Shown: piece after piece, positions 62-36,678 of the stretch
Layout: each line of letters opens with the position of its first letter
How positions within the stretch are numbered: the first letter of the stretch is position 1
DNA from: Pseudomonadota bacterium
Lineage (GTDB): Bacteria > Pseudomonadota > Alphaproteobacteria > Paracaedibacterales > CAIOTO01
Direction: 5' to 3'
Length of the DNA: 64,000 nt
Assembly (NCBI GenBank): GCA_040387495.1
Contig: JAZKDQ010000018.1
Coordinates: forward strand, 1-64,000
Position numbers and translations under genes: made by a program
Notes under the pieces: generated by a model
Seen by the model: the letters and a program-made list of their open reading frames with translations, nothing else
Database searches by the model: none
What the model was told of the DNA's origin: nothing

Positions 62-103
62 AATATTTAAATTCACAGTTTTTATCAATAAAAGGAGATT
101 TTT

Positions 104-5204: not shown

Positions 5205-5229
5205 AGTTTAACACTGAGCTTGTTTAAAC

Positions 5230-5266
5230 AAAAAAGTGCCTAGAAAAATACGCAGGCACTTTTTTT
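5230..5266. terminator. Bidirectional intrinsic terminator
   Basis: AAAAAAGTGCCT-loop-AGGCACTTTTTTT between convergent genes. Confidence 0.8.
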
Positions 5267-5282
5267 GTTAACACTATTAGTA

Positions 5283-5701: not shown

Positions 5702-5940
5702 AAAATAATTCCTTTAAGTGTTGTGTAAAAAATATAAATAGCCGAGCACAAACTTCCTATGAATCAATTAAATCAATGATAATTTATTTAATCCATATGT
5801 CTTGAAATAAAAATGATTCAAAATTACATTCTGTATCATAAATGAAATATATTGATAAATAGTTAATGAATGAATGTATTTTTGTATAAAAAGGAACAAT
5901 ATATATAAATATTATTCCTTTTTGAAAAATGCTACCAATA

Positions 5941-6522
5941 TTACTTATGACGCACAACTACAAGGTGGGCAGGATCAATCGCCATTACATCAAATATGAA
6001 TGTTTCTGGTTGGCCATTAGATACAATCGAACTTTGAACAGTTGCTGTTCCAGTTGGACTCTGCTTTGCTTGATTCAGCATATTATTAAAGTTCTGAATT
6101 TCACCTGGATCCGTTACTATACCGTTGTTTCTTGAATTTGAGTGTAAGCGGAATATTTGACCATTTTGTGCAAATGTAAGACAGATCACCGCTTCATTCA
6201 AAGAAACTTTAAGAGCTATTGCAAATGCAGCCTCACCTTTAATATCTTGTGGAAGACTAGCAATTTGTGAAAGAGAATTTTTAACGTCTTGCGTTAAAGC
6301 ATTAGTGCCGCCTTGTGATGGCATTCCTTGCTGTGGGATACCTGGTTGTGGATAACCACCGCCGCCCATGCTGTTCATTCCTACACCCATTCCATAAGGA
6401 GCAGCTGATTGTGGCTGCTGACCATAGCCACTTGGCATCCCGTACCCATAAGCACCCATCGCACTTGCATTAACAGACGTCATAGCTAGAAAAACGGCGC
6501 CCATCATCAATATTTTCTTCAT
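5941..6522 (-). CDS. Secreted hypothetical protein with G/M/Q/P-rich linker and Cache/PAS-like C-terminal domain
   Basis: Sec signal MKKILMMGAVFLAMTSVNA; low-complexity segment; paralogous C-terminus. Confidence 0.75.
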   Translation of the reverse strand: MKKILMMGAVFLAMTSVNASAMGAYGYGMPSGYGQQPQSAAPYGMGVGMNSMGGGGYPQPGIPQQGMPSQGGTNALTQDVKNSLSQIASLPQDIKGEAAFAIALKVSLNEAVICLTFAQNGQIFRLHSNSRNNGIVTDPGEIQNFNNMLNQAKQSPTGTATVQSSIVSNGQPETFIFDVMAIDPAHLVVVRHK

Positions 6523-6699
6523 AATTAAAATCCCCTTTATTACTATGCGGATGCATTATCTAATGCAAAAATCCATAAAGAATTATTAGATTATCCGCGA
6601 TAAACACTTGTTAACAGAAAAGATAAGATCTTTCCCCTCTATCAACAAATATAAGAGAAATTAATTAATAATATGTTAATTAAAGAAAATTAAATAATT

Positions 6700-21401: not shown

Positions 21402-22103
21402 ATGTCTACGTTCATTATATTAGTTGGGATACAATTGCCCGAGAATCTAGGAGCCATTGCGCGGGTAATGGGAAATTTTGCACACAGTAAGCTTAGGCTT
21501 GTGACGCCGAAAGTTGCAGTTGATGACCCAAAGGCTGTGGTTATGACAGTCGGGGCAAGTCATATTCTTGAAAATGCTGAGGTATTTGATTCTTTTGAGG
21601 CGGCAACAGCGGATTGCTGCACGGTCATCGGCACAACGGCGAATCCGCGGGATGTAATTAAGCATTATCTGACGCCACGTGCCTTTGTAGATAGCTTGCC
21701 AACGTTAGCAGATCCCATTGGAATTGTGTTTGGGCCAGAGCGCACAGGCCTTACTACTGATCAAATTGCGTTGTGTAATGCCACACTGCAGATCCCTGTG
21801 AACCCTGAATTTTCGTCGCTTAACATATCGCATGCTGTTGGAATTGTGCTGTACGAGCTATACCAAGCACAAACGAATGCAAACCCCTTTTGGCAACAAG
21901 GCGAGACAGTGCCTGCAACAGCAGCAGATGTAGATGCCTTTTTAGGGTTTTTAGAAGCTAAATTAGATCAAACGCATTTTTGGCGAACAGAGGCGAAAAA
22001 ACCGTTGATGCGTCGTAATCTGTTCGGATTGTTTAAACGCCAGACGTTGTTTCAGCAAGATGTACGGACCCTACGCGGAATGATTGAGGCATTGTCTAAG
22101 TAG
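21402..22103 (+). CDS. trmJ: TrmJ/LasT family SPOUT RNA methyltransferase
   Basis: ENLGAIARVMGNF, FGPERTGL, IPVNPEFSSLNISHAV. Confidence 0.85.
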   Translation: MSTFIILVGIQLPENLGAIARVMGNFAHSKLRLVTPKVAVDDPKAVVMTVGASHILENAEVFDSFEAATADCCTVIGTTANPRDVIKHYLTPRAFVDSLPTLADPIGIVFGPERTGLTTDQIALCNATLQIPVNPEFSSLNISHAVGIVLYELYQAQTNANPFWQQGETVPATAADVDAFLGFLEAKLDQTHFWRTEAKKPLMRRNLFGLFKRQTLFQQDVRTLRGMIEALSK

Positions 22104-22231
22104 AGTAAGAATATACTGTTTTACCTCTTAAATAGTGCATTTTTGATTGAATTCTTATGACTTATGAATGGACATCTATAGGATTCCTCTCTCGGTATAT
22201 AAGGAATGAATGGCCTTCATTCCCAAAGGGT

Positions 22232-22666
22232 TTATTCCTGCAAATATAAATCCAACTCATCTAAAGGAAGCCTCATAAGATCTTTATGAACCTCCTTGTA
22301 AATCTTTCTTTGAACATCTTTATGTAAAAAGTTTCGCAGATATCCTAATATGTGATCAGGCGCAATTAAGGCTATTTCCTCATAAAGTTCTTTATTGTAA
22401 TTTAAAAAAGTAGCAAGTTTTCGTGCAAAATTTTCTTTGTCGATTTCTTTAGGTTTTCCTGGAAGTGGAAAAACATGATGATCTCCCTGATCAGCACCAT
22501 GTTGCCTAATTCTACCAAGATGGTGAGTAAATACTTTTTTCTGATGAGGAAATTCTTCTATGCGTTCTGTTCCATAAATATGCACGTACATGCCTGAAGT
22601 ACTTTTTGCTAAAACTTTAGCTTTCAAACCATCCATAAGTAGTGCCCATTTTATTAATTTTTTCAT
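22232..22666 (-). CDS. Host attachment protein family (release-factor-like, baeRF12-type)
   Basis: WALLMDG..A, PKEIDKENFARKLA.FL, LIAPDHILGYLR, EVHKDL. Confidence 0.8.
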   Translation of the reverse strand: MKKLIKWALLMDGLKAKVLAKSTSGMYVHIYGTERIEEFPHQKKVFTHHLGRIRQHGADQGDHHVFPLPGKPKEIDKENFARKLATFLNYNKELYEEIALIAPDHILGYLRNFLHKDVQRKIYKEVHKDLMRLPLDELDLYLQE

Positions 22667-22807
22667 TTCCAGCCTCCCTTTTGTGCCATCTATTCGTTTT
22701 TATAAGAATAATTATTCGCTCATTTTGGGTTATATTTTGATGTGTTTAACAATACATGAAAACTCAAAATTATAAATCTCACTTGATATTATATTACGCA
22801 CTGCAAT

Positions 22808-23422
22808 TTAATCATTTACCCCTCCAACCATAGGAACAAAACGGACGCTAAAAAGGTCTTCAGAAATGAAATGATTTTCTCTATTCGTTTTAGTAATTTT
22901 TATAAGCATCTGATTATGCCGTTCATCTTCTATTGGAATAATCAGACGCCCGCCAATTTTCAACTGGCCTAAAAGCTTCTCTGGTAATTTCTTAGCTGCA
23001 GCTGTCACGATAATAGCATCAAATGGTTCTTTTTCTTTCCAACCAGTATATCCATCTTCTATTTTGATATGGACGTTCTTATAACCCATTTTTTGTAGTA
23101 ATTGTGATGTGTTATTGCCTAATTCAGGAATGACTTCCACAGAATAAACCTCTTTGCATATTTCTGCGAGAATAGCGGCTTGGTATCCCGAACCTGTACC
23201 GATTTCGAGCACAAGTGATTGGTTATCGATTTGTGCCGCTTCGGTCATGAAAGCCACCATGTAGGGTTGGGAGATTGTTTGTTTGCATGTTATTGGGAGA
23301 GGATGATCTTCATAGGCATATGCAGAATAAGATACATGCACAAAAAGGTGTCGTGGCACTTTCTGCATGGCGTGAAGTACAGACTCATCTTTAATTCCTT
23401 TTAGCTGAAGAGTATGAAGCAT
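22808..23422 (-). CDS. pcm: Protein-L-isoaspartate O-methyltransferase
   Basis: VPRHLFV, QTISQPYMVA, LEIGTGSGYQAA, PFDAIIVTAA, VRFVPM. Confidence 0.95.
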   Translation of the reverse strand: MLHTLQLKGIKDESVLHAMQKVPRHLFVHVSYSAYAYEDHPLPITCKQTISQPYMVAFMTEAAQIDNQSLVLEIGTGSGYQAAILAEICKEVYSVEVIPELGNNTSQLLQKMGYKNVHIKIEDGYTGWKEKEPFDAIIVTAAAKKLPEKLLGQLKIGGRLIIPIEDERHNQMLIKITKTNRENHFISEDLFSVRFVPMVGGVND

Positions 23423-23653
23423 TTTCTCTCTTCTTAATGTGAAATCATGTTATTCATACTATTTCTCCTGTATAAATTACGCATATTCAAATTGAATAAC
23501 AAATATTGTTTTTGATTGAGAAGCTGGCACAAGGTGTTCTGGATTATACCTGAACGCTGTATTTTGGTTGAGGCCATTAGATTTAAGGGTAAAATACTTA
23601 TTGCTAATAATGTTGGAAGCCATGCTATGTGCGAAAGTTTCATATCACATCCT

Positions 23654-23689
23654 TCAAGTAGAACATCTCTATCAAGTAGAACATCTCTA
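23654..23689. repeat. 18-bp tandem duplication TCAAGTAGAACATCTCTA x2
   Basis: Read directly; includes the stop codon of the BI-1/YccA gene. Confidence 0.85.
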
Positions 23690-24388
23690 TTTCTCACGGC
23701 GACGCCCAAAGAAACGAAGTAAGTAGAGAAAAAGATTTAAGTAATTCAGATAAAGTGTTAAGGCTCCTACGATTGATTTTTTCTCAAGTATTTCTTGGTG
23801 ATCATCTGAAAAATATAAATTTTTTATGCCTTGAATATCAACAGCTGTTAACCCAACAAATAAAAGAACTCCCACACTGGAAATAACGAGATCAAAAGAA
23901 GTGCTTCGGAGGAATAAATTTATCAATCCAGCTATGATCAGTCCCAAAAGCCCCATGATCATAAAGGATTTTAGGGATGATAAATCAGTTTTTGTGTTGT
24001 ATCCAAAAAGGCTCATTGCACCAAAAGTAGCGGATGTGATGAAAAAAGTAGAAGCGATACTCTGGCCTGTGTAGAAAAGAATTGCTGGAGCTAAAGAAAT
24101 TCCTATTGTGGTCGCATACAGCCAGAAAAGGATTTGGATAGTAAAAGACGATAAAATTTGGATACGCGATCCTATATAATAAACAAGAATGAATGGAGCA
24201 ATCAAAATCGCCCATATAAGAGGAGTCCCAAAGATAGCATCAAAAAGATAAGGAGTAGAAGCAATCCAGTAGGCAGCAATACCAGTCAGGCTTAATCCTA
24301 ACATCATATACGTATAGACTTTTATTAAGTAAGTACGTAATCCTTCATCTATGTAGTGAGCTTCTTTCATGTAAAAATCATTTTTCAT
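23687..24388 (-). CDS. Bax inhibitor-1/YccA family membrane protein
   Basis: DEGLRTYLIKVY, GYNTKTDLS, GLTAVDIQ, GALTLYLNYLNLF. Confidence 0.92.
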   Translation of the reverse strand: MKNDFYMKEAHYIDEGLRTYLIKVYTYMMLGLSLTGIAAYWIASTPYLFDAIFGTPLIWAILIAPFILVYYIGSRIQILSSFTIQILFWLYATTIGISLAPAILFYTGQSIASTFFITSATFGAMSLFGYNTKTDLSSLKSFMIMGLLGLIIAGLINLFLRSTSFDLVISSVGVLLFVGLTAVDIQGIKNLYFSDDHQEILEKKSIVGALTLYLNYLNLFLYLLRFFGRRREK

Positions 24389-24424
24389 GATAATTTCTCC
24401 AATATTGATGCGTTTACGTTTTTA

Positions 24425-26032
24425 TTATTCCTCAATTCTAAGCGATGGATAATGCGGCCCACCCTTGCCGATAACAAGCAGCATTACATTCTTACGGCCA
24501 TTCTTTTTTGCTTGTTTAATAATATCGGATACATCTTGTGGTTTTTGAATGCTTTGTTGATTTACTTCCGTTATGATCTCGCCTGGGATAATGCCTGCAT
24601 CGTCACCTGCGCTTCCTGGCTCAACTTTTATAACTAAGGCGCCTTTTATATGTGGTGATAAATGTAATTTATTTTGTGCACTTTCAGTAATGGGTCCTAG
24701 CGTTAGCCCAAAGGTTTCCGTATCTGTAAAACGTGGCCTTTTCGTTACATCAAACTCATCCATTTTGCCTGATTTAGCTGCTTCTTCATATTCACCAACA
24801 GTTACGTGTAATGTTATCTCTTTTCCCTTTCTCCATATTTTTAATGGAACTGTTTCCCCCACATCAGTTTCACCAACCAAACGTGGCAATCGATTCTTCT
24901 CATTAAGTATTTTTCCATCATATTCAAAAATAATGTCGCCATCTTTAATTTTAGCTTTTTCTGCAGGACCATCACTGGTTACAGAACCTACGATTACTCC
25001 TTGCACTTTAATGCCGAGTGCTTCCGTCATATCTTCTGTTAACGGTTGTATGCGTATGCCAATCCATCCGCGTTTTGTACGACCAAAGTCGATAAGTTGG
25101 TCAACTGTCTTTTTAGCAACACCGGAAGGAACAGCAAAACCAACGCCAACGTTGCCCCCTGTAGGTGAGAAAATAGCCGTATTGATGCCAATAACCTGAC
25201 CTTTCATATTAAGCAAGCAACCACCTGAGTTCCCGATGTTAATTTGCGCACTGTGCTGTATGAAGTCATCCACATAACCGCTCATAGTTCCACGTCCTGG
25301 CATAACAAGATCACGTCCTTTGCTAGACACAATGCCAACTGTAATGCTGTTACTTAGGCCAAAAGGATTGCCAATTGAAATTACCCAGTCACCGACACAT
25401 GTTTTATCTGCATCTCCCCATTCGAGAGCAGCGAGATTGCGTTTGTTTATAGGAAAATCCTCTAGCCTCACTTTAAGCACGGCTATGTCAGTGCGATCAT
25501 CTGTCGCATGCACAACTGCATTTAGTTCCGTTTTGTCATGCAAATAAATTGTGATTTTCTTTGCATCCGTAATAACGTGATTGTTTGTGACGACGTACAT
25601 AGCATCTGCCGTAACACGTATTATAAAGCCAGATCCTAAGGAGCGCACTTTGCGTGGCATGTTAAACTCGGGACGATCAAAAAAATCGCGAAATAATTCA
25701 TCAAACGGTGTGCCTGATGGAAAATCTGGTAGGTCTTTCTTTGCTTTTGGATCAACAATTTGTGTCGTTGCAATACTGACAACAGATGGTAATGCGCGCT
25801 CTGCAATGTATGAAAATCCTTGACTTATATCGCCAAAAGATGTTCTTTCTTGCGAAGGTTTTTTATCAATATGCGATATAAACTTCTCAGCATTTGTTGC
25901 TGCTAAGCGCCCTAATTGAGCAGAGCAATGGCTTGACGAAAGTCCAATAGTGAAGGATATAACAATAATGATAAAAAATAATATAGATACAATGAGATAT
26001 TTAGTTTTACAGTTACAATTCAATAATTTCAT
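24425..26032 (-). CDS. Do/DegP/DegQ serine endoprotease with two PDZ domains
   Basis: SLGSGFII, TNNHVI, DIAVLK, IGNPFGL, GNSGG, GVGFAVP. Confidence 0.95.
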   Translation of the reverse strand: MKLLNCNCKTKYLIVSILFFIIIVISFTIGLSSSHCSAQLGRLAATNAEKFISHIDKKPSQERTSFGDISQGFSYIAERALPSVVSIATTQIVDPKAKKDLPDFPSGTPFDELFRDFFDRPEFNMPRKVRSLGSGFIIRVTADAMYVVTNNHVITDAKKITIYLHDKTELNAVVHATDDRTDIAVLKVRLEDFPINKRNLAALEWGDADKTCVGDWVISIGNPFGLSNSITVGIVSSKGRDLVMPGRGTMSGYVDDFIQHSAQINIGNSGGCLLNMKGQVIGINTAIFSPTGGNVGVGFAVPSGVAKKTVDQLIDFGRTKRGWIGIRIQPLTEDMTEALGIKVQGVIVGSVTSDGPAEKAKIKDGDIIFEYDGKILNEKNRLPRLVGETDVGETVPLKIWRKGKEITLHVTVGEYEEAAKSGKMDEFDVTKRPRFTDTETFGLTLGPITESAQNKLHLSPHIKGALVIKVEPGSAGDDAGIIPGEIITEVNQQSIQKPQDVSDIIKQAKKNGRKNVMLLVIGKGGPHYPSLRIEE

Positions 26033-26275
26033 ATGCATTCTCCTTGTTCTTTTATCTCATTTTTTAACTATGCAGGATGAAAATACATACGTACATGTGA
26101 AATATACAGGAATATTCGCCTCAATAATATTCATTTTTATTTATATTTTTCTGTTATGGTTGAAAACAATTTGAATATTAAAGTTGATATTATGATTCAG
26201 AAATTATAAAGCTAAATAGGTTCAACTTACTAAAATTAGAATGTGTTATTAACCTAAACCAAAAAGGAGAAGCTC

Positions 26276-26524
26276 ATGGCTGGAACAACAGAAGGTGGAA
26301 AAAAAACAAGTGAAGGTGGTCGCGGAGATCCTCATAAAGCAAGCCCCGCTGCCGTAGAAAATTATCTAAAGGGTATAACCTTTCCTGCAGATAAGAATGA
26401 ACTTATCAAACATGCACGAGAAAATGCAGCTCCGGATGATGTCTTGTATGTGTTGAGTCAATTTGGGGAAGAAGAATATCATTCTCCAATCGATGTGGCA
26501 AAAGAAGTTGGAAATATAAAATAG
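26276..26524 (+). CDS. DUF2795 family protein with hydrophilic G/K-rich N-terminus
   Basis: YLKGITFPADKNELIKHARENAA...YHSPIDV; AAGGAG RBS. Confidence 0.85.
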   Translation: MAGTTEGGKKTSEGGRGDPHKASPAAVENYLKGITFPADKNELIKHARENAAPDDVLYVLSQFGEEEYHSPIDVAKEVGNIK

Positions 26525-26625
26525 ATTGTTTGAATAATAGGCTCTCTTTATTGTGTAAATTATTCACTGTGTATATAATTGCAAATATAAGTAGCCATTT
26601 ATAAATTTTAAGAAGGAAATTTATT

Positions 26626-26988
26626 ATGACTAAGGCATCTTTTAAATTATATATAGGCGCTATTTCATTACTTGTTTTTGCACATCCATTGATGGCAAGC
26701 AAAATAGATATCGTCAATGAAAATAAAAAGGAATTGACTGTAAAAATAAATGGAGAAGGAACGGATGCTGCAGATCCTTATGAAAAGAAAATCCCTGGAG
26801 AACATAACTCTACACTTGTAATAAGTAAAAAGGATCTAAACAACAAAACATTTTATTCCATTAAAGGTGAAACGAGTAATTTTACACCGAGTGGTAGATG
26901 CGATTATTTGAATGTTGATAAAAATTACAAGGTTACTTTTTTAAATGATTCGATAGGCACTACTTGTATTGCCGAGGAAGTTAAGTGA
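26626..26988 (+). CDS. Secreted hypothetical beta-rich protein
   Basis: Signal peptide ending PLMA; two Cys. Confidence 0.65.
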   Translation: MTKASFKLYIGAISLLVFAHPLMASKIDIVNENKKELTVKINGEGTDAADPYEKKIPGEHNSTLVISKKDLNNKTFYSIKGETSNFTPSGRCDYLNVDKNYKVTFLNDSIGTTCIAEEVK

Positions 26989-27000
26989 TTTTATGATTTT

Positions 27001-27032
27001 AACCTAGTATATGTTAGGACATATACTAGGTT
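27001..27032. terminator. Perfect 14-bp inverted repeat (terminator or operator)
   Basis: AACCTAGTATATGT-TAGG-ACATATACTAGGTT followed by CTTTT. Confidence 0.55.
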
Positions 27033-27058
27033 CTTTTAATATTACAAGGAGATGGAAA

Positions 27059-27511
27059 ATGGTGACATTAGTTGGAATGCAAGATGATTTTGGGTCGGCG
27101 CTTAAGGATTTAATCGAACTTGAGTATGATGCTGTAGAAGCTTATGAAGCTGCTATTAATAGGCTCGACAATGAAGAATACAGAATGAGTATTACTTCAT
27201 TTATGCAAGACCATTTGCGGCATATTAAGGAGGTTTCAGAATTGTTGAAAAAGCACAACGAAACGCCACCGAGTGGTCCTAGTTTAGCAAAGCAATGGCT
27301 TACAAAGGGTAAAGTTATTTTCGGAAATCTTGTAGGAGATAAAACAATTCTAATGGCTTTGAGAAGCAATGAAATTGATACGAACACAGCCTATGAACGT
27401 TTAAAGATTCACGAGCACATTTGGTCAGATGCGCGAGATATTATAAATCGCGGACTCATGGATGAACGTAAACATAAGAAATGGCTTGAATCTGTTCTTG
27501 ATTCTGAATAA
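27059..27511 (+). CDS. Ferritin-like domain protein (DUF2383/PA2169-like)
   Basis: LIELEYDAVEAY..AI, DHLRH, NE..TNTAYE, DERKH diiron-type pattern. Confidence 0.85.
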   Translation: MVTLVGMQDDFGSALKDLIELEYDAVEAYEAAINRLDNEEYRMSITSFMQDHLRHIKEVSELLKKHNETPPSGPSLAKQWLTKGKVIFGNLVGDKTILMALRSNEIDTNTAYERLKIHEHIWSDARDIINRGLMDERKHKKWLESVLDSE

Positions 27512-27702
27512 ATACGCACATCTAAAACTTCCTATCTCTTCGGGAAACCTGAGTATAGTAAGAAGTTTTTCTCATCAAAAAATGGGCTATTTAAATTATT
27601 TAATTGGCCTATAGGCCGTCAATTGACTTTAATAATTGAAACAATAATCATTTTAGGTTCTGGTGTAGGCTTAAGTGAGTAAGTTTTTGTATCCTCCACT
27701 AT

Positions 27703-27761
27703 GTCGTCCTCGTGCTCCCTCCTTCGCCAAAGCTTCAGGAGGACAGATGACACGAGGATCT
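27703..27761 (+). repeat. Palindromic repeat element (GTCGTCCTCGTG...CACGAGGATCT)
   Basis: Nested hairpins TCCTCGTG/CACGAGGA and CCTCCT/AGGAGG. Confidence 0.65.
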
Positions 27762-27817
27762 TTGTGCTTTTAAAGGTAAATAGCTTGAGTTCTCTTGTAA
27801 TGTATTAAAGAAAGAAG

Positions 27818-28279
27818 CTATGTGTTTTTTGTTCTCGTATATCTTCCTATGAGTACAGCTTGTTCTAATATGTGTTGTTCCATCGCATTTTCTATATGCA
27901 ATCTAGATGCTCCCTCAGGTAGTGGAAGAATGTTATTTAATGCGTATAACTTAAAATAATAATGATGTTCACCACTGGGTGGACAAGGTCCTCCATATTC
28001 TTTTACTCGCCAACTGTTTAAACCTAATTTTGTAGGCTCAACTAATGTTTTTATGTTTTCTTCTAATTTAGTTATTTCAGTCGATATGTTGTAAACAATC
28101 CAGTGATCCCACATTCCGTTGGTAGTGTCAGGGTCATCCATAATAAGAACAAACGATTTTGTTCCTTTAGGGATATTACTCCATTCAAGTGGGGGCGAAA
28201 TATCTTCGCCATCACATGTATATTTTATTGGAATTTCGGAATTGTTCTCGAATTCAGTTGAGCTTAATGATAGACTCAT
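27818..28279 (-). CDS. YbhB/YbcL PEBP (Raf kinase inhibitor-like) protein
   Basis: YTCDGEDISPPLEW, MDDPD, WDHW, YGGPCPPSGEHHYYFKLYAL. Confidence 0.93.
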   Translation of the reverse strand: MSLSLSSTEFENNSEIPIKYTCDGEDISPPLEWSNIPKGTKSFVLIMDDPDTTNGMWDHWIVYNISTEITKLEENIKTLVEPTKLGLNSWRVKEYGGPCPPSGEHHYYFKLYALNNILPLPEGASRLHIENAMEQHILEQAVLIGRYTRTKNT

Positions 28280-28322
28280 AATAATTCTCCTTATATTTAT
28301 AAAATATATAACTAATTATTCT

Positions 28323-28586
28323 TTATATGCCAGAGGATAGGTTGTGGGTAATTCTCCTTTCGCCCAGCTCTCTGTCAAATCGAGAGGCATAACAGCCGTT
28401 GTGTGATCCAAGTGAATCAATGCATCAAATTTGATAGAACTCATGTGTGCCATGAGAAGATTCACCAATCATAACAAACCGAGCTGACCCAATATTTTCT
28501 AAGATACCTGGATAGTCATTGTGTCTATTTTCAAAAGGACAAATTTTAGGCCCTAGTGTATTTAATAAAGGGTGAATTATCTCCAT
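28323..28586 (-). pseudogene. Erythromycin-esterase family gene remnant with large internal deletion
   Basis: N-terminal IGSARFVMIGESSHGTHEFY joined out of frame to C-terminal FDALIHLDHTTAVMPL...ELPTTYP. Confidence 0.8.
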
Positions 28587-29026
28587 AAGTGTCTCCTGAG
28601 TAGAATCCACACATTGTGGACAAAGGCCTTAATATGGGGCCATGTGCTCGCTTTCATTCGTGAGTTTAACAAAATTATTAATTTAAATTATTTGAAAATG
28701 ACCGACAAATTCACAAGTGAGTGATTTATATAATATGATTTCTTGCTAAACTGAATTCTAGATATTTATAATCTTGAAAGGTGGTTGTAATGTATTGCAA
28801 TAACAACTCCAACTAATATAATTTTTCACTAACTTTGTGAATTTAAATTTTTTGTTAAATACATCTTCTTTGCTTCAGCCATTCATTTAAAATGAGAGCA
28901 GGGTTATCTAAGAAGTGTTCCTGGAATAATGGCTGCTAATCGAAAAATATTAGTAGATTCGAATGAATTTATTGCCGAATACACGGAAAATAGGTAGAAG
29001 AGCTTGTTAAATAGTTGAGGAGATAA

Positions 29027-29758
29027 GTGGCATTGCAGAACTTTCCATCATACAAAAAGAGAGCACTTTCTTTTATAAACCAATAAACCAGCATCAAGAA
29101 GCACACAGCCTACAAGAATTACAAAGGTCTCTTTATGATTATTAAGCCTGATAATCTCTTTCACTATATCATTCGTATTGTTGGGAGAAAACACTTGCCA
29201 AAAAATGCTTCTTACTTTTGTTTTGTTACAAAAATATTAGAAAATCTCGATGATCTTTTGAATATATTAAGGAAAAAGGATTATCAGAAATCAACACAAG
29301 ACGAAACTGATTTAACGGAAGCTCATTGCTTAGGAATAGGAAAATATTTGATCATAGATCATGACGGACACATACATTCCTATTATAAGCTCGATGTTCG
29401 TTCAATCATTAGTGACGTTCAGGAACAGTTTAATTTAAAAAATGAAGGAGGCTATATTGTAAGCGTTAAAAACCCTCATCAGCCTTCTCCTGCTGGGGTG
29501 GGGTTATCCTCAACTCAAAAATACAGCTATCCTTCTTTGTTGCAAGAGAAAGTAGGCGATTGTCGGTTTTTGCCTCTTAATCCTCCTGATTTTATAAATT
29601 ATGAGGGAGCAGAACTGCCACTTATAAGTCAGAAGATGTCTGATATAGTAGGAAAAGAGCCGAAAATTTGCAAATGCATAAAAGCAATAGCTAATGACGA
29701 TTTGGCAAGATATTTGAAAGAGGTAGATGGTGCCATCACCTTTGTTGACGTTTTGTGA
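29027..29758 (+). pseudogene. Conserved hypothetical gene with frameshifted 5' part
   Basis: GAGGAG RBS + GTG; FYKPINQHQEAHSLQELQR lies in a different frame from ORF 29135-29758 (VGRKHLP, SVKNP, FINYEGAE). Confidence 0.6.
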
Positions 29759-30029
29759 AATAGCAAATTGTAGGGTGTAAATGAATGCCATGAGGAGCGA
29801 GGGGATTAAGTTTAATATCATGCCTTAGAATGCTTTCGCACGACGAATCACGCCGTTGTTATTAAAACGGATGAAGAATGTTGTATTAAATAGGGAAATG
29901 GGAGGAAGACATCCACATTGATGCCTAAAAACCTATATAAACTAACGGTTTTAAGAGTGCGCGAAAAATATCATGCCCCCAAATATGCCCCCAGATTTAT
30001 TTTTGTTAGGGTGATGAATTATTTTTTAA

Positions 30030-30269
30030 TTCTCCTTTCAATCCCATTTCGTCTTCAGTAAACATTTTATCAATAAGTCGCGTAAAGCGGTTAGCCCAGC
30101 ATTGCAAGGGTGAATAATGAAATCTGGGCCCATGTATTGTTATCATTTCCTCAAGCTCACCGTAACCTTAAAGAAAAATGACATTTCGCGTACACAAAGA
30201 AAAGAACGATACTTGGCGTTGAACAAAAACCTTCGAAATATGTGAGTAGGTCACTGGAAACTTCAGCAT
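30030..30269 (-). pseudogene. IS6-family transposase 5' remnant, frameshifted and truncated
   Basis: Frames join to YFEGFCSTPSIVLFFVYAKCHFSL/YGELEEMITIHGPRFHYSPLQCWANRFTRLIDK, resembling the IS6 pattern LSYRxLEEM..RG...DHST..RWV. Confidence 0.65.
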
Positions 30270-30345
30270 ATTTCTTTCATTTCGATCAGGAACAATCGAA
30301 GCTTATCTTCCTTCAACACATACAACATGTATCAAATCTAAATAA

Positions 30346-31780
30346 TTACCCAAAAGAAATTGCATTGCCAATGGTTCTATTTCCGAGTGCTTGAAATGAT
30401 GTGCCTGCCCCAACGGTAATCGCGCCGGAGGTAAGCGTAACAAGTGTGTCCGGTGCTGCAAGTTCTAATCCACCGGTTCCACTTGTCGTGATTGGAAAGG
30501 TGGCTTGAATCGTCCCACCCGAAGCCTGGTATTGATTCCCAGTAAGTGTTGTAACAGCAGGTCCATTAATGGTTAATGCAGTAGTGCCGCTGTTATATAT
30601 TATGCCCGATAATGTTGCCGCTTGGGTTCCAGTAATTGTGGCACCACTATTACACGTAATAGTAGATGCAAATGTTGGAGTCGAAGCAGTGTTAAGTGCA
30701 AGTGTTGTGGATGCTGCAAGAGCGATGCTTGGCACCGTGCTAGCAGAGCCAGCAAGAGCTCCAGTGCTTGTAAGTTCGAGTGTGCCACCTGGCCACGTTA
30801 ATTGCAGCATTATTTGTATTCGTGCCGCCAAATTTCACTACCGTACCAGCGGTTCCAGCGGCACCAACAGTTAAAGCAAAGTTACCTGTAATTGCACTAT
30901 TCAACGTCAACGTTTGACTGGCAGCAGGCAAAATACTTGCTGCACCGCTTAATACGATATTAACACCAGGTGGTACTGTCGGGCTTATACCTGTGGCCGT
31001 TGAAAGAATTGTTCCTGCCGCCAAGTTAATACCGGATGCAAGTGTCGTTGGAATAGCATTTGTTCCACCAATACATAAGTTTGTTCCTGTTGTTGAAACA
31101 GTAATACCGCCAGTTAATGGATAAGAACCAGTATTATTAGTGCCTGATAATGTAATAACACCGCCGCCTACAAGCGCTAATGTATTCCCACTGTTTGTTG
31201 CTGGTTGAGAAATTGCCCCTGAAAGTGTTATGGCGTATGGTCCGACGTTCTGAGTTCCGGTGCCATTCCACCCTAAACCAGTAATGGTACCTGTTGCACT
31301 CGAACCAGCACCAATTATAATTGGGTTAGTAAGAGTCACTCCCCCTGAAAGACTTGCTGCAAGCGTTGCCCCACTTTCAATCGTAATGGGAATAGCGGCA
31401 TTGGCTGAACCAAAAGCATTGGCTGCTGTTACATTTAATTGTAGGGTACCACCTTGAATATCAACAGATGATGTCACTGCGTTAGTAGTAAGTGTTGGTG
31501 CGATAATACCAACACCTGTTCCAGTTTTATTTAACTTGGTGGCTGTAATAGCGCCTGTAAGTGTTGTTTCATCCGTGCCTGCAACATTCCATGCAGAAGT
31601 ACCGGCATAACTAGACCCATTAGCCATAATAACCATCGCTGCTATCGCTATAAAATATTTTTTCCAGGATACATTCGAAAAAGATGAAATCAGTGCAGGC
31701 AAGCTTGTACTGCTGATGTTATAGCTTTGAAAGCTGGAAGTGAGAAGAAAACAATTCTTTAAAGTATTTGAAAAACGCAT
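30346..31780 (-). CDS. Barrel-less autotransporter-passenger-like beta-helix protein (~477 aa), split by a 1-nt frameshift near 30791
   Basis: ORFs 30740-31780 and 30346-30831 join as NAAINVA/GGTLELT; long signal peptide ending SSYA; G/T/S/A-rich strand repeats; ends NAISFG. Confidence 0.75.
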
Positions 31781-31860
31781 AATTACACATCTAATAAAAT
31801 TTTATCTAAAATAAGTATAAAATGAAATCTCTTAAAAATTAGTTAATACTCAGGTTTTTT

Positions 31861-33117
31861 TTACCCAAATGTAATTGCCTTCGCAATGGTTTTAAATCCA
31901 GTTGCTTGAAAGGATGCGTTTGCACCAATTGTGATGGCACCAGTACTAAGTGTAACGGCCTGTGGAATAATTAATTTTGTATTTGCACCACTGACAGTTG
32001 TTGTAAAGGCGCCCGATTGTGTACCCGATAGCGTTACGTTTTGACCGCCACTAATCGTTAAGGCGCCTGTTATGCCTGTGAGTGCGCCTGAAAATGTTGT
32101 TGCAGCGGTTGTGTTTATCGTGACTGTATTCCCAGTAAATATAATTGGATTTGCAAATGATGCAGCGACACTGCTTTTAAGCGTGGTGTCTGTGGAAAGA
32201 TTGATGGTTGGATTATTCGTGCTATTTCCCGCGCCTGAACTAGCTAATTCAAGCGTGCCTTGAGATACCGTGATAGTGCCTGTATTGGCGTTTGAACCCG
32301 AAAGCGTTAATGTTCCTGCGCCAGATTTTATAAAATTACCTGCACCAGTTATAACGCCACTTAATGTCATTGCATAACTTTGTGTATCGACAGTGCTATT
32401 TGTAGAGGATGTAAGTGTAATAGCACGACTGAGCGTAAAAGCCCATNNNNNNNNNNNNNNNNNNNNNNNNNNNNNNNNNNNNNNNNNNNNNNNNNNNNNN
32501 NNNNNNNNNNNNNNNNNNNNNNNNNNNNNNNNNNNNNNNNNNNNNNTATTTAAAATGCCAGCACTAACGGTGGTTGTACCTGTGTAGGTATTTGCGCCAG
32601 AAAGAGTAAGTATGCCTGCACCACTTTTTGTCACGGCACCTGTCCCGCTAATTACCCCTGAATAAGGGTATGCATCAAAACGATTAAATATAAGATCACC
32701 ATTATTAGAAATACCATTACTATTGATACTTCCTGTTGTTGATCCTGAGCATATTTGCAAGGTGCCAGCACTAATAGTAGTAACACCTGTATAAGTATTT
32801 GTTCCAGAAAGTGTCAGCATGCTCGAACCAGTTTTTATGACAGTTAAAATGGGTGCTAATATATTAGATGTGATTTCCCAATTTTCCGCTCCTATATTAA
32901 TGGTAAGGGTTGGCGCACCACTACTACTTGTAATATTTCCCACAACAGGAAAATTTCCTCCTGTTATTATTGTATTACTACCGCTTAAGTTAAGATTTGT
33001 ATACGTTGCGTAAGCATGATAGTTAATTAAATATAATATTTTAGCAGAAATTAAAAACGTCTTAATATTGATCATTTTTAATCGATTTGTAAAATATATT
33101 AATGATTTTATATTCAC
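31861..33117 (-). CDS. Barrel-less passenger-like protein(s) with autotransporter-associated beta-strand repeats; spans the assembly gap
   Basis: KSGAGxLTLSGxNTYTGxTTVSAG repeats; signal ending HAYA; ends KAITFG; continuity across the N run is not established. Confidence 0.7.
   Translation of the reverse strand: MNIKSLIYFTNRLKMINIKTFLISAKILYLINYHAYATYTNLNLSGSNTIITGGNFPVVGNITSSSGAPTLTINIGAENWEITSNILAPILTVIKTGSSMLTLSGTNTYTGVTTISAGTLQICSGSTTGSINSNGISNNGDLIFNRFDAYPYSGVISGTGAVTKSGAGILTLSGANTYTGTTTVSAGILNXXXXXXXXXXXXXXXXXXXXXXXXXXXXXXXXXXWAFTLSRAITLTSSTNSTVDTQSYAMTLSGVITGAGNFIKSGAGTLTLSGSNANTGTITVSQGTLELASSGAGNSTNNPTINLSTDTTLKSSVAASFANPIIFTGNTVTINTTAATTFSGALTGITGALTISGGQNVTLSGTQSGAFTTTVSGANTKLIIPQAVTLSTGAITIGANASFQATGFKTIAKAITFG
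32447..32546. other. Scaffold gap (100 N)
   Basis: Run of exactly 100 n characters. Confidence 0.99.
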
Positions 33118-33377
33118 AAATAATATACCTACTTTTGTTTGTAAATATTATTATTCATTAAATATGTTTATATTTTATTAATATGTATATATTTTATATA
33201 TTTATTATTTACATTAGGTGCGATACTCAGAACGACTGTCGTCACCGGAAGTCCGGGCAATGCATATGAAGAAAAAGGTATGTATGTCGTAATTTATGGC
33301 TGTTTTAAACGTATTATCTTGCATATCTGCTGAAACTCTCTAAAATTTTAATAAATAGTTTGTCTGTTTTAACAGAA

Positions 33378-36300
33378 ATGCATTTTGAAAAAAATAAACT
33401 AGATTGTTTTTATATAAGGTTTTATATTCCTACGTTAAGCAGGTTAAGAAAGTCATGCCACGATCTATTTTCTGTTATATATTTTTCTTTTCTCATTTTA
33501 TTAGTATTTACAAATACAGCGCCGGCATCAGTTGAAATCATTGTTGCTGCAGGTGATGCTACCGTTCACAACCAACAACAAGACAATCCAAACAACCCTG
33601 GCGTACCCATTGAAAAAATTGGTTCCGGTGACTTAATTTCCCTTAATTCAATTTATACAGGCACGACAACCGTATCTGAAGGACGTTGGTTTGCCATGGG
33701 TCCTCTTGGTACAGCAGCCAATACAAACATTAATATAGCCAACGAAGCAACCTTAGGGGGAACCGGCCCTATTGCAGGAGCTATTCAAAATAGTGGCACA
33801 ATAGCACCAAGTGCTGGTGGGATAACTGCCGGAAATATATCAATTCCCGTAGGCACCATGACAATAATTAATGGCACAGTGAACCAAACGTCAACGGGTA
33901 GCATTCACGTGAATTGCACACCAATAATTAGTGATAAAGTCAGAATTGTAGGAGCAGCGACTTTTCACCCCAGCAGCGCTATAAACATAACTCCACTACC
34001 AGGATATTATCCATTTACCCCGACGACTTACACGATTATTGATTGGGATTCATACAGCGGCATCCCCACCGTGACATCAACGGATCCAAAGGTACCTGTT
34101 AGTGCAACCACTATGGGGCCATCAGGATTATCTGTAAGCCTAACGGGCACTCCTGAAATGCTTCCCACTTCGGCACCAGGAGCAGGAGGAACGGCAACAG
34201 CAGATGTTACTTCTTTTGCGGCTATAACAGGCAATAGTGCAGTTGTGCCAGCCAACACAACCCTTGCAAACTCAGTAGTAGGTCAGCAAATAATTACTGT
34301 GCCAGTCGCATTTATAGGAACTTCAACCGTATCCACAAGCGCCAATGCCAAAACGATATTTTCACAACCAGTTGTCACCAGCCAAAACGACCAAATCATC
34401 CTAACTGGCGCTGGTATAACTACATTCTCAGCCGATAACAGCGCAACGTTACAATGTGACATCAATGTATCTGGATCGACAGTCCAAATAACAAATGATG
34501 CCAACCTTGGTACTGGACAACTCAATTTAACAAGCGCTAGTGGCACCCCATCTACACTTAATTTAGGTGTAAACTCAGGCGACAGGGTTACGCTAAATAA
34601 CACATTAAATTTGACTGATACTGCACATCCACCATCTGTGGTTGTTCCAGAGGGTGGACAAGCAACATTAACAGGCTTTCTTGTTGGTGACGCACCACTG
34701 AATCTTACTGGAGACGGAATAGTTATCCTAAGTGATACATCAGGCGAGAGTAACAGTTATACGGGCAGCTTAAATGTGCAAGCAGGCACCCTTATCCCGG
34801 CTGGTGACTACAGCGGAGCAGCCGTTTCTATTAGTTCTGGAGCAGCTTTAGGTATAAGTGGCACATCAGGTAGTGTGGGAGCAGTTACTCTAAATGAAGG
34901 TTCGGAAGTACAGGCAACTTCGCCAACCGATGGGTTTTCCGCAGAATCATGGACAAACTCTGGTACAACGTACAACATCCCAGTAAATAATACAGGCGGA
35001 ACGAGTAGAATTACAGTTGTTAATGATGCTACACTAACTAATCCTACCTTTAACATTTTAATGACGGCCGGCACCTATCCACAAGGCGTTATTGACTACA
35101 ATCTACTGCAAGCAGGCGGGACGCTAACAGTCACAGGAACAGTAACGCTAAACTGGGTCAATCCTGCTTTTGGAGACGGCGGGATAAATGAAAAACCAAT
35201 CACCTGCACGATAGGAACATTCACAAAAACAACCAGTGGCGTTCCGACAAATTATTTGGTATTAAAGGCAACATTGACAGATGACGTTACAGTTAGCGCG
35301 CTTCAAACTACTGCTGATTGTAACGATACAATACCGCTTACAACCCCACTTACCACAACAGTCATTGCCTCAACCGACATCGTATCACCTGACAGTGGCC
35401 TCCTCGAAACGGCAACAGCAGCCCCAATTGCAGATCAAGTGGAACTTACCAACCTCGTATTCCAAAACCATCCAGCGTCTGATGACGCTGTCTCATCTGC
35501 CGTAGGTGATGCATTCCGCTTTAAAGGATTCTCATCCAGCAAGACGCCATCCGTATCTGGCAAAAAAGATGCCATAGAAACCTTACTGACTGCACTTTCT
35601 AAAAATGGTCCTGTAGCCTATGAGAAAAATGAAACACGTCTTTGGGTTTCACCGTATGCGAACCGTAGCCGTACGAATCGTACAAACAGTGATTCTGGTA
35701 ACCAAGGCTGGTCAGGCGGTTCATTGGTTGGTGTTGAACAACGTGATAAAAAGAACATCTGGTCACTTGGTCTATTAACAGGTCTTATGGGGTCACGTTC
35801 ACATGTTCTTGGCACACCCGATACATTTTCAAAAACAAATGGTTTCTTAATTGGTGCATTTAACACATACAAATACACACAAGAATGGGGTCATGAAGTT
35901 CTAATCAGTCGCACGAACACCTTTGTTGATGCACAACGCTATGGTCTTGATAGAACAGATAAGCAAACACCGTACTATGCGTTAGCCACCTATAAGTCCA
36001 CAACCGATGTCGGGAACGCACAGATTAATTACTTATTCAATATCATCAAAAAGAAAGTAACCTGTCGTTTAAGCACAGGTATAACTTATCTTGGTACACA
36101 AACAGGAAAAATCACCGAACGTAATGCAGGCGCTAATGCTCTTTCTTCAGCCGCAAGCACCAGCAAATCTTCTGAAATTTACACAGGTATCGGCCTTCGC
36201 CGCATCTGGGACGTTGATAAGATTACCGTTCGTACAACGTTTGTGTATGAATACGGCTATGAATTTATGAAAAAGGGATCTGGCATCACAACAACAACTC

Positions 36301-36497
36301 AGTCGTTAACTCAATCAACGGCACCAACAACCTTTACAACACCTAACGGACCACGTCAGAACAAGCATTATATCCAACTCAATAGCTCGTACCTTGATCG
36401 CGATACAGGCTTGAAATTCATTCTGTCGTATTCGGGTGCTTTGTATAAGAATGTGAGAAATCACACTGGTATGGCTAAGGTTGAGTATCGGTTTTAG
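33378..36497 (+). CDS. Autotransporter (type Va-like) with beta-helix passenger and C-terminal beta-barrel
   Basis: Long signal peptide; EKIGSGDL...YTGTTTVSEG repeat; ~290-aa amphipathic C-terminus starting RLWVSPY and ending KVEYRF. Confidence 0.88.
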   Translation: MHFEKNKLDCFYIRFYIPTLSRLRKSCHDLFSVIYFSFLILLVFTNTAPASVEIIVAAGDATVHNQQQDNPNNPGVPIEKIGSGDLISLNSIYTGTTTVSEGRWFAMGPLGTAANTNINIANEATLGGTGPIAGAIQNSGTIAPSAGGITAGNISIPVGTMTIINGTVNQTSTGSIHVNCTPIISDKVRIVGAATFHPSSAINITPLPGYYPFTPTTYTIIDWDSYSGIPTVTSTDPKVPVSATTMGPSGLSVSLTGTPEMLPTSAPGAGGTATADVTSFAAITGNSAVVPANTTLANSVVGQQIITVPVAFIGTSTVSTSANAKTIFSQPVVTSQNDQIILTGAGITTFSADNSATLQCDINVSGSTVQITNDANLGTGQLNLTSASGTPSTLNLGVNSGDRVTLNNTLNLTDTAHPPSVVVPEGGQATLTGFLVGDAPLNLTGDGIVILSDTSGESNSYTGSLNVQAGTLIPAGDYSGAAVSISSGAALGISGTSGSVGAVTLNEGSEVQATSPTDGFSAESWTNSGTTYNIPVNNTGGTSRITVVNDATLTNPTFNILMTAGTYPQGVIDYNLLQAGGTLTVTGTVTLNWVNPAFGDGGINEKPITCTIGTFTKTTSGVPTNYLVLKATLTDDVTVSALQTTADCNDTIPLTTPLTTTVIASTDIVSPDSGLLETATAAPIADQVELTNLVFQNHPASDDAVSSAVGDAFRFKGFSSSKTPSVSGKKDAIETLLTALSKNGPVAYEKNETRLWVSPYANRSRTNRTNSDSGNQGWSGGSLVGVEQRDKKNIWSLGLLTGLMGSRSHVLGTPDTFSKTNGFLIGAFNTYKYTQEWGHEVLISRTNTFVDAQRYGLDRTDKQTPYYALATYKSTTDVGNAQINYLFNIIKKKVTCRLSTGITYLGTQTGKITERNAGANALSSAASTSKSSEIYTGIGLRRIWDVDKITVRTTFVYEYGYEFMKKGSGITTTTQSLTQSTAPTTFTTPNGPRQNKHYIQLNSSYLDRDTGLKFILSYSGALYKNVRNHTGMAKVEYRF

Positions 36498-36588
36498 AAA
36501 GTTAGAGAAATAAATAATTACTTTGACTATTGTGCTGTTTGAGGAAATTGTTCACTAGCAATCAGTTGGATGGTATTAAACAGGGAAA

Positions 36589-36678
36589 TGGAGGAGAGGA
36601 AGGGATTCGAACCCTCGATACGGTTCCCCGCATACACGCTTTCCAAGCGGGCGCCATCAACCACTCGGCCACCTCTCC
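36589..36678 (-). tRNA. tRNA-Ser(GGA)
   Basis: GGAGAGG/CCTCTCC acceptor stem, TTGGAAA anticodon loop, long variable arm, GGTTCGAATCC, encoded CCA. Confidence 0.95.

Follow-up and report, generated by a model that had tools for sequence, protein, structure and literature searches.

A small family of naturally barrel-less PATR proteins, predicted to be beta-helices, with a conserved C-terminus and possible head-to-tail docking

Can the passenger of an autotransporter exist as a protein of its own, and if so, what would its ends be for? This question is raised by two genes, here called A and B, in a window of 64,000 nucleotides (the whole stretch of DNA that was analysed) from an alphaproteobacterium of the Paracaedibacterales (assembly GCA_040387495.1), where passenger-like proteins with nearly the same ending lie beside an autotransporter, gene C. 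An earlier note on this DNA had proposed that they are free subunits stacking into a fibre nucleated on that autotransporter. We find that A and B are members of a small, lineage-restricted group of related, naturally barrel-less proteins of the PATR type, predicted to be Sec-exported right-handed beta-helices. At a probability of roughly 0.4, we favor the reading that these proteins have open rungs at their ends and dock head to tail into short chains. The features of the locus are as follows, with positions given in the window:

22101..36588, no strand: variable block of about 14.5 kb holding A, B and C, delimited by blastn synteny
30346..30831, minus strand: 3' ORF of gene A, 161 aa, with the C-terminal module at 30349..30789
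30349..30441, minus strand: tail of gene A, the last 31 aa ending ..NAISFG, then stop
30740..31780, minus strand: 5' ORF of gene A, 346 aa, with the leader and the N-terminal two thirds of the predicted beta-helix
30785..30795, minus strand: frame switch splitting gene A, a frame change in the alignment to intact homologues
31861..32446, minus strand: C-terminal part of gene B, 194 aa, with one PATR repeat and the C-terminal module
31864..31956, minus strand: tail of gene B, ..KAITFG
31864..32280, minus strand: C-terminal module of gene B (E 5.2e-49)
32447..32546, no strand: 100-N scaffold gap within gene B, with a depth jump beside it
32547..33117, minus strand: N-terminal part of gene B, 190 aa, with a putative signal peptide and two PATR repeats
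33360..36497, plus strand: gene C, a complete classical autotransporter of 1045 aa, divergent from B
about 35640..36368, plus strand: barrel of gene C (PF03797)
36589..36678, minus strand: tRNA-Ser(GGA), bordering the variable block

The strings on which the earlier note had built its case were all found in place: the endings VTLTSGAITVGAGTSFQALGNRTIGNAISFG-stop of gene A (stop at 30346-30348) and VTLSTGAITIGANASFQATGFKTIAKAITFG-stop of gene B (stop at 31861-31863), in the interior VNIVLSGAASILPAASQTLTLNSAITG in A and NPIIFTGNTVTINTTAATTFSGALTG in B, and the N-terminal strings GTSAWNVAGTDETTLTGAIT in A and SVEIIVAAGDATV in C. The shared ending stands as well, but gene A is split by a frameshift and gene B is broken by the gap. 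Gene A (31780..30346) consists of two ORFs in different frames that overlap at 30740..30831, with the switch near 30790. The 5' ORF is homologous to residues 1-330 of intact proteins of 448-469 aa, which run in a single uninterrupted frame across the switch site, and the 3' ORF matches profile A3 at E 6.9e-42. The letters at the switch are identical in contigs of two sequencing runs, of which one may be the source of the assembly while the other reaches the site 6 nt from a contig end. Being frameshifted, the window's copy of A may be inactive. A programmed frameshift at 30790 was set aside; in our own reading of the letters, we saw no slippery motif there. By eye, the leader of A (about 59 aa, ending ..SSYA) has a basic WKK, a hydrophobic stretch and ..SYA, followed by GTSAW. 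In gene B (33117..31861), the gap means that neither the total length nor the continuity of the two halves is established. Beside it, contig depth goes up from 13 to about 80, which indicates collapsed PATR repeats, and the run contigs do not bridge it, their loose ends at 32306 and 32309 being short repeat pieces. PF12951 (PATR) matches the N-terminal part of B at E 2e-22 and the C-terminal part at E 1.7e-9; it has no match in A at E<=0.1, and A is linked to PATR proteins through profile search and predicted fold.

The tails of A and B share 64.5% identity over 31 aa as compared to 44% over the 149-aa C-terminal region, and each is the other's only match in the 1.66-Mb genome (tblastn E 4.7e-7 and 3.3e-7). 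The FG motif closes the protein in all eight homologues that reach this region, the tail profile matches at the very end of the chain in 13 of 151 relatives, and the ORF stops 0-21 aa past the module match in 12 of the 18 relatives examined, plus the two window genes. These counts support the view, already taken in the earlier note, that ..NAITFG-stop is a real conserved C-terminus, selected and natural and not the product of random truncation. What defines the family is a C-terminal module of about 140 aa, predicted to be beta-helical, whose last strand (h-x-F/L-G/S, here ..NAITFG) forms the C-terminus. Intact orthologues of B (676 aa) and A (453 aa) stand in tandem in the congener G003, metagenomic homologues carry the module too, and three further barrel-less proteins of this genome have it with variant last strands. 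A pattern scan of genome contigs gave 13 pattern matches, of which two were confirmed, at a single locus and in G003 only. No barrel was found in module-ending members of the family, and A and B, whose ORFs end at the tail, have no PF03797 match at E<=0.1.

Could A and B nevertheless be decaying, functionless pieces of autotransporter pseudogenes that have lost their barrel? The frameshift in A, the variable island around the genes and the relationship between the module and the final passenger repeats of true autotransporters would all fit such a history, as would the frequent decay of autotransporters through frameshifts described in the available parts of PMC8111173. We nonetheless consider it very unlikely, given that the stop position and the conserved last strand are the same in intact orthologues and homologues of 314-1160 aa, each with a putative signal peptide of its own, that variant-tail members are retained at syntenic positions in several species, and that the DNA downstream of A holds no barrel remnant or barrel-like stretch.

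Gene C is a complete type Va autotransporter: Its last 365 aa, scanned alone, match PF03797 at E 7.6e-12 with 46 bits (cut-off 26), a barrel that the full-length Pfam scan had missed. The block of about 14.5 kb is missing from the same tRNA-Ser/TerC junction in the congeners G001 and G006, and the island's PEBP protein has no match in four congeners. No att-like direct repeat of the tRNA-Ser end was found within 24000-36700, so the limits of the island are given by synteny only. Co-location with an autotransporter, as the earlier note had it, held in one further genome and failed in another: In G002, an autotransporter and a module gene again form a divergent pair, within another genomic context, whereas the A/B pair of G003 adjoins an integrase, forms no divergent pair and has its nearest barrel on that contig 34 kb off, and three further module genes of the genome analysed here sit among housekeeping genes. 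Since C-like barrels occur in 10/10 genomes of the taxonomic family, mere co-occurrence of module and autotransporter is uninformative. We regard the tie of A and B to the autotransporter as weak.

The head-to-tail register described in the earlier note is the ordinary phase of the PATR super-repeat, with proteins starting and ending on repeat boundaries: Giant PATR proteins contain 31 internal copies of the same rung, and after each of these follows the next repeat unit. A profile of this next unit matches the first mature residues of four tail-bearing proteins, P0034 (29-66; 4.7e-10), P0030 (27-64; 4.6e-8), the G002 protein (38-81; 4.5e-7) and P0091 (46-88; 1.6e-5). On A-type proteins, the continuation profile matches weakly in P0003 only (62-86; 4.6e-4), with no match in P0001, P0002 and P0005 or in the window's A, nor does it match gene C. 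With mature N-terminus and C-terminus both on super-repeat boundaries, both ends of the helix would be open rungs. The true autotransporter paralogues of a congener have the module inside the passenger, from where the chain goes on into ..KPGNSIGT.. and then the barrel; the best-matching module copy is followed directly by the conserved ..PGNSIGT.. segment, after which comes the barrel. Continuation past the motif into a barrel, which the earlier note had named as evidence against its proposal, is seen in these distant paralogues.

In-phase ends would be seen in any array of whole repeats, and it is a real possibility that the family and its terminus are genuine while the proteins are monomers that act singly as envelope or secreted binding proteins, their in-phase ends being nothing but the limits of the repeat domain. 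Besides the identity of register and repeat phase, the scatter of module genes among housekeeping genes speaks for such monomers, as does the commonness of barrel-less PATR proteins: PF03797 has no match in 17 of the 18 distant relatives scanned, a soft count because full-length Pfam scans can miss barrels as with gene C, and several Atlas clusters of 212-809 aa have PATR repeats without a barrel. A lone-acting helix is harder to reconcile with ends that are more conserved than the interior. Mean pairwise identity in the A family is about 0.6 at 61-120 and 0.56 at 441-460 but 0.11-0.54 between, and P0002 and P0003 have identical ends on a mosaic middle. The module also stays the same while the N-terminal parts joined to it vary greatly, and this points to a function of the module itself: A has a plain helix, B a PATR helix, the congener's B an NHL propeller, P0012 likewise NHL, and the metagenomic P0056 and P0097 Ig-like parts.

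The fold and a possible contact were modelled with an intact homologue. AF2 predicts P0002 to be all-beta across residues 58-469 (pLDDT 80.5, pTM 0.79). A Foldseek search against the PDB gave no match at E<=0.001, and VIA-align, used as a second look, aligned the model with the passengers of EspP (Z 17.5, rmsd 6.9, 347 aligned), EspC (Z 17.5), UpaB (Z 16.2), Vag8 (15.9), Ag43 (Z 13.2, rmsd 3.7, 260 aligned) and pertactin (12.7), suggesting an autotransporter-passenger-like beta-helix. Two copies of residues 57-469 of the intact homologue were co-folded with scores of 0.00, 0.64 and 0.63 (median 0.63), i.e., two of three native runs were positive and one favors the monomer, while the controls, which were unrelated proteins rather than other beta-helices, reached 0.00 as best of 3. 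In the calibration of the tool, the mark applied is reached by 20/30 solved homo-pairs and 1/23 single chains. The partner pLDDT is 90 or more, and the stated contact agreement between runs is at least 0%. The interface is strictly head to tail, with residues 427 and 448-469 of copy 1 against 57-81, 83, 93 and 170-172 of copy 2. This result suggests that the last rung of one copy can stack on the first rung of another, i.e., the C-to-N contact that the earlier note had anticipated, and it counts against the monomer. Repeat proteins cut in phase may, however, yield such stacking by themselves through the model's knowledge of intramolecular repeat stacking. Both the fold and the contact are model predictions.

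Under the docking reading that we prefer, the C-terminal rung would dock by beta-sheet augmentation onto the N-terminal rung of another PATR helix, giving rise to short head-to-tail chains in which A-type proteins would serve as extenders and proteins with a non-helical N-terminal head could be the distal unit only. The proteins would also lie at the surface, having crossed the outer membrane by a putative route, and may dock on the neighbouring autotransporter. A bolder version seems improbable to us. Exported barrel-less PATR helices would then extend type V stalks non-covalently and modularly by plugging their C-terminal rung into the N-terminal rung at the far end of an anchored passenger, or into that of one another, to form fibres of variable length that NHL or Ig-like heads would cap as exchangeable tip adhesins. 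The division of labour in such a stalk could be likened to that of minor and major pilins or of CsgB and CsgA.

How could these proteins cross the outer membrane? As the earlier note had remarked, a TPS domain and its partner are missing: TPS has no match in A or B at E<=0.1, and ShlB/TpsB (PF03865) was not found in the 99.9%-complete genome. Searches of the genome found one Omp85, no CsgG (PF03783), no GspL of a type II secretion system and a single secretin whose best match, of the MshL pilus type, is below cut-off, and thus no dedicated translocator for A and B; the curlin family has no match in A or B. Sorting tags such as PEP-CTERM comprise a motif, a membrane-spanning helix and a basic tail, and A and B have nothing after ..FG. 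T9SS-type and sortase-type tags were set aside, the ORFs ending at the strand. The module itself could be a sorting or folding element that is recognised in trans by BAM or an autotransporter barrel, or that nucleates C-to-N folding during export like an autochaperone. It is always C-terminal in the barrel-less group, its best-matching copy in autotransporter paralogues directly precedes the ..PGNSIGT.. segment before the barrel, two genomes have an autotransporter as divergent neighbour of a module gene, and A-type proteins have long leaders of about 56-59 aa, as do many type V proteins. This role is nonetheless doubtful to us, considering the lack of a dedicated translocator in those searches, an ending that does not look like the canonical beta-signal with its terminal-aromatic motif, and the lack of a Pfam ESPR match in A. 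In the papers found by our literature searches, at the level of titles and abstracts, no type Va barrel is described as secreting a separate passenger in trans, nor, mostly at the same level, are separate barrel-less passengers described that stack on an autotransporter.

To our knowledge, nobody knows the placement and role of the thousands of database proteins that are named "autotransporter-associated beta strand repeat-containing" and have no barrel. This locus offers a compact testable case among them, with a defined C-terminal module, a conserved natural stop, in-phase ends that are more conserved than the core and a model-supported head-to-tail contact. If stacking is true, surface fibres would be built, and their tip domains exchanged, in a new way that needs neither pili nor curli machinery. 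If it is false, the family still shows a clean dividing line directly before the ..PGNSIGT.. segment, where a passenger stalk can exist without its translocator, and this line bears on passenger folding and export.

Among known systems, the closest are the type Va PATR autotransporters of the classical AIDA-I/IcsA/ShdA type (Doyle et al. 2015, as cited in the available parts of PMC8111173). A and B resemble them in a predicted right-handed beta-helix and PATR units (one or more PF12951 / TIGR02601 repeats above cut-off) and, judged by eye, may share a Sec leader with them; their module shares homology with the final passenger repeats of autotransporter paralogues of the same genus. Unlike these, A and B have neither the junction region nor the 12-stranded barrel, and the ORF ends at a conserved strand. 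From two-partner secretion (type Vb) they differ in that A and B have no TPS domain and the genome no TpsB.

The comparison with Ag43 concerns contacts between passengers. In Ag43, the pairing is lateral and links one cell to another, and the passenger remains attached to its own barrel or derives from it, whereas the contact predicted for the A/B family is end to end and barrel-less. What the family would share with self-associating autotransporters (available parts of PMC8993888 and bioRxiv 10.1101/2025.04.08.647479) are contacts between beta-helix passengers. Curli, as far as the available parts of PMC10192328 describe them, consist of open-ended beta-solenoid subunits, CsgA and CsgB, that stack head to tail on a cell-bound nucleator, and the co-fold suggests a similar head-to-tail sheet augmentation, as an analogy of mechanism only. 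The curli subunit forms a small two-sheet solenoid of left-handed twist and leaves the cell unfolded through CsgG, which this genome lacks, whereas the A/B family comprises predicted three-sided helices of 300-1100 aa whose fibres are hypothetical. Other proteins annotated as "autotransporter-associated beta strand repeat-containing" are likewise widespread PATR helices without PF03797. Some of them end in sorting elements, such as the dockerin of P0029 or the hydrophobic tail of P0156 and P0158, which we take to be PEP-CTERM-like, while the A/B family would end in an open rung.

An arrangement of barrel-less, passenger-like proteins (A and B) divergent from one complete autotransporter (C) had been proposed for this locus and is borne out by our searches. 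The genes and their surroundings are as follows, PATR being the autotransporter-passenger repeat (PF12951/TIGR02601):

33117..31861, minus strand: gene B, PATR protein whose span includes a gap of 100 N
31780..30346, minus strand: gene A, starting 80 bp after gene B; two ORFs in different frames
33360..36497, plus strand: gene C, complete classical autotransporter, divergent from gene B across a 242-bp spacer
32447..32546: scaffold gap of 100 N inside gene B
36589..36678: tRNA-Ser(GGA), just past gene C

Neither A nor B has a barrel, and tblastn with gene C as query found no barrel remnant downstream of gene A. Gene C carries PF03797 when its last 365 residues are scanned alone (E = 7.6e-12; 46 bits, cut-off 26), and a genome-wide search recovered the same barrel. 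It was overlooked by the full-length Pfam scan, so that all barrel counts are to be taken with caution; as gene C illustrates, whole-protein counts are unreliable on repeat-rich proteins. Gene B matches PF12951 in its N-terminal (E = 2e-22) and C-terminal parts (E = 1.7e-9) as well as TIGR02601, and gene A has no Pfam or NCBIfam match at E<=0.1.

Both passenger genes are damaged or incomplete in this assembly. The protein starting at 31780 had been read as a single ORF, which did not hold: gene A consists of a 346-aa ORF (30740..31780) and an overlapping 161-aa ORF (30346..30831) in different frames, with a switch near 30790 at a point that its intact homologues cross uninterrupted. Because public contigs of two runs from one study agree with the window over this site, the break is probably real in that population; run X1 may be the assembly source, and in X2 the site lies only 6 nt from the contig end, at depth 4. 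The reading frame of gene B across the Ns carries no meaning, nor does its apparent length, and the climb in contig depth beside the gap, from 13 to about 80, is what collapsed PATR repeats would produce. Autotransporter paralogues run off several contig ends of this genome (C18:88079-89896, C1:3-3524, the end of C12 and the start of C7), so that breaks in the assembly fall within this family of genes. Contig C1 has two long ORFs (3..3524 and 3400..6630) that overlap out of frame with each other and are suggestive of a very large autotransporter interrupted by a frameshift.

In two congeners (G001 and G006), what directly follows the same tRNA-Ser/TerC junction is homologous to the window near position 22,100, which marks about 14.5 kb (22101..36588), with A, B and C, as a variable block. 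Att-like repeats were not detected. The block also contains an HtrA/DegP-like gene (24425..26038), a PEBP-family gene and several small ORFs.

Over 31 aa, the tails of A and B share 64.5% identity, compared with 44% for the entire 149-aa C-terminal region, and within the genome each tail matches only the other. A third congener, G003, encodes the tandem pair intact (B 676 aa, A 453 aa), both proteins ending in ..NAITFG-stop. Among 7999 scored candidates from 5.8 billion proteins searched, 6 matched at E<=1e-3, one of them the window's own ORF; the four retrieved (P0002, P0003, P0005 and P0006) all stop at the motif or its variant ..NPLVFS, and all 8 of the 8 aligned sequences that reach the region terminate there. 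The terminus is thus selected rather than the product of random truncation, as the earlier note had argued, and the observation is real. That A and B are pseudogene remnants, a reading to which the frame switch in gene A might lend itself, ranks last and is very improbable beside the intact G003 pair and these shared ends. When the last 48 alignment columns are used as a profile, the match is terminal in 13 of the 151 stored proteins, and 74 internal matches fall in 23 giant PATR proteins.

This tail belongs to a module of about 140 aa (alignment A3) found at the C-terminus of proteins whose N-terminal parts vary widely:

P0012 (the G003 B protein): NHL propeller
P0056 (1160 aa) and P0097 (952 aa): Ig-like and cadherin-like arrays
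other members: plain PATR helix

The G003 B-type gene (locus L005, 9139-11166) encodes the NHL beta-propeller (PF01436, E = 3.8e-23) followed by PATR repeats and the module; the N-terminal part of the window's gene B is unlike that propeller. At E<=1e-5, the A3 profile matches in 7 of 62 genomes of the order (this one included), and without this one in 4 of 6 genomes of the genus and 5 of 9 of the family. Of its 25 matches, the two in the window and five that lack a locus were set aside. In 12 of the 18 examined, the stop comes 0-21 aa past the match, in one 34 aa past it and in two 214-255 aa past it, and the remaining three have no stop inside the locus (one being at a contig end). Four variants of the last strand occur: ..NAITFG; ..SLPPIVL(S) or ..LPCGISL; ..TGSTWFLLNN; and ..YQIFIG. 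Synteny across several species is seen for proteins ending in the second and third variants. This genome encodes three further barrel-less PATR proteins with the module, which are syntenic in congeners and adjoin housekeeping genes:

C3:184179-186764: 861 aa, ending ..TGSTWFLLNN
C3:45605-47263: 552 aa, ending ..SLPPIVLS
C10:23541-26987: 1148 aa, ending ..SLPPIVL

In our preferred reading, A and B belong to a family of PATR beta-helix proteins that have open ends, no barrel and a conserved C-terminal module. A role of this module in sorting or folding ranks third among the readings and seems unlikely to us.

Whether homologues continue past the FG motif into a barrel depends on their distance: close relatives never do, but distant paralogues do. 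The precomputed domains of 14 longer relatives (E<=1e-5) include PF03797 in none of the six best (E<=3e-23) and in five of the eight weaker matches, all five of which carry the module internally. Two large G003 autotransporters (1879 and 1876 aa; best module-like stretch 5e-10 and 1.2e-10, respectively) carry the stretch about 535 aa before the C-terminus, from where it leads directly into ..K.GNSIGT.. and then the barrel. Judged by these sequences, the family thus resembles a passenger stalk stopping just ahead of the junction region.

The fold was predicted from a 9-row alignment for P0002, a metagenomic A-type protein that is the closest intact homologue of the window's A (79% identity over the module). 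The model (mean pLDDT 80.5, pTM 0.79; residues 1-58 of low confidence) has short strands from 61 to 468, and DSSP assigns neither end a helical cap. No Foldseek match reached E<=0.001, the best being Ag43 at 0.029. Among Foldseek's 104 chains, VIA-align scored EspP at Z 17.5 (rmsd 6.9, 347 aligned), EspC at 17.5, UpaB at 16.2, Vag8 at 15.9, Hbp at 15.1, pertactin at 12.7 and phage tailspikes and lyases at 12-15. P0002 is thus predicted to fold as a passenger-like, right-handed parallel beta-helix.

In the 31 best internal copies of the tail profile, the chain runs on as G.ATV....ATLSGVISGSG.LTKTGSGTLTLSG, the next PATR unit. A profile was built from 30 of these continuations, and several tail-bearing proteins match it at the start of their mature sequence:

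P0034, residues 29-66: 4.7e-10
P0030, residues 27-64: 4.6e-8
214-aa protein of congener G002, residues 38-81: 4.5e-7
P0091, residues 46-88: 1.6e-5

A-type proteins match weakly, with P0003 alone scoring (62-86, 4.6e-4) and no match in P0001, P0002, P0005, the window's A or gene C, so that the register of A rests mainly on reading GTSAWNV..TTLTGAIT..LNKTGTG against the consensus. As far as these profiles indicate, tail-bearing proteins start and finish on whole-repeat boundaries. The head-to-tail register of the earlier note thus stands insofar as the ends lie on repeat boundaries, but the register itself is the ordinary phase of the PATR super-repeat. Such ends are compatible with end-to-end stacking and equally with a domain of whole repeats, and a plain monomeric role of the proteins is a close second among the readings and a serious possibility.

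Co-folding of two copies of P0002 (residues 57-469) speaks to the contact itself. Three runs scored 0.00, 0.64 and 0.63 (median 0.63; best of three controls 0.00), against a mark that, in the calibration of the tool, 20 of 30 proteins solved as homo-pairs and 1 of 23 solved as single chains had reached. Partner pLDDT reached 90 or more, and contacts were stated to agree between runs by at least 0%. The confident interface joins residues 427 and 448-469 of one copy to 57-81, 83, 93 and 170-172 of the other, and in the model places the last rung on the first. The predicted C-to-N contact of the earlier note was therefore recovered in two of three runs but not in the third, with our own alignment supplied and controls that were not beta-helices. 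The model may also have extended an in-phase array of repeats simply because it has learnt how repeats stack within one chain, and we take the co-fold as support, not proof, for head-to-tail contact. Independent hints point in the same direction: mean pairwise identity within the A family is about 0.6 in the mature N-terminal rungs, 0.56 in the tail and 0.11-0.54 in the interior, and between P0002 and P0003 the first ~60 and last ~20 residues are the same and a block in the middle is 97% identical, but identity elsewhere is only 33-53%, a mosaic suggestive of recombination among paralogues or strains. We rank highest, at a probability of roughly 0.4, that the conserved ends may function in head-to-tail docking.

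Nucleation of docked subunits on the neighbouring autotransporter would be a bold extension, and we regard it as doubtful. In G002, a C-like autotransporter (1105 aa) lies divergent from the 214-aa module-only protein with 120 bp between them, and since the window's TerC neighbour is on another G002 contig, the surroundings of this recurring pair differ from those here. Arguments against a functional link are that the G003 A/B pair adjoins a phage-type integrase (PF00589, 1.6e-23), with the nearest barrel on its contig 34 kb off, and that the remaining module genes lie among housekeeping genes. C-like barrels are present in 10 of 10 family genomes, so their co-occurrence with the module cannot discriminate. 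About 7 kb from the G003 pair lies a gene with long tandem repeats PVATS(A/T)(A/V)EPTAE (L005 1-900).

Any surface-assembly model is weakest where it needs a route across the outer membrane. The genome encodes a single Omp85 and a single secretin, the latter matching the MshL pilus type best, though below cut-off; a genome search found no ShlB/TpsB, in agreement with the earlier note, and no CsgG or GspL. At C1:204549-210740, the lone MshL-like secretin (557 aa, lipoprotein-type leader) is followed by an 891-aa exported protein without family match and a 459-aa protein with weak ankyrin-effector-like matches.

By descent, the closest relatives of A and B are PATR-type autotransporters (PMC8111173, citing Doyle et al. 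2015). The closest mechanistic analogy for the possible head-to-tail docking is curli, whose solenoid subunits, as described in PMC10192328, are stacked head to tail upon a cell-bound nucleator.
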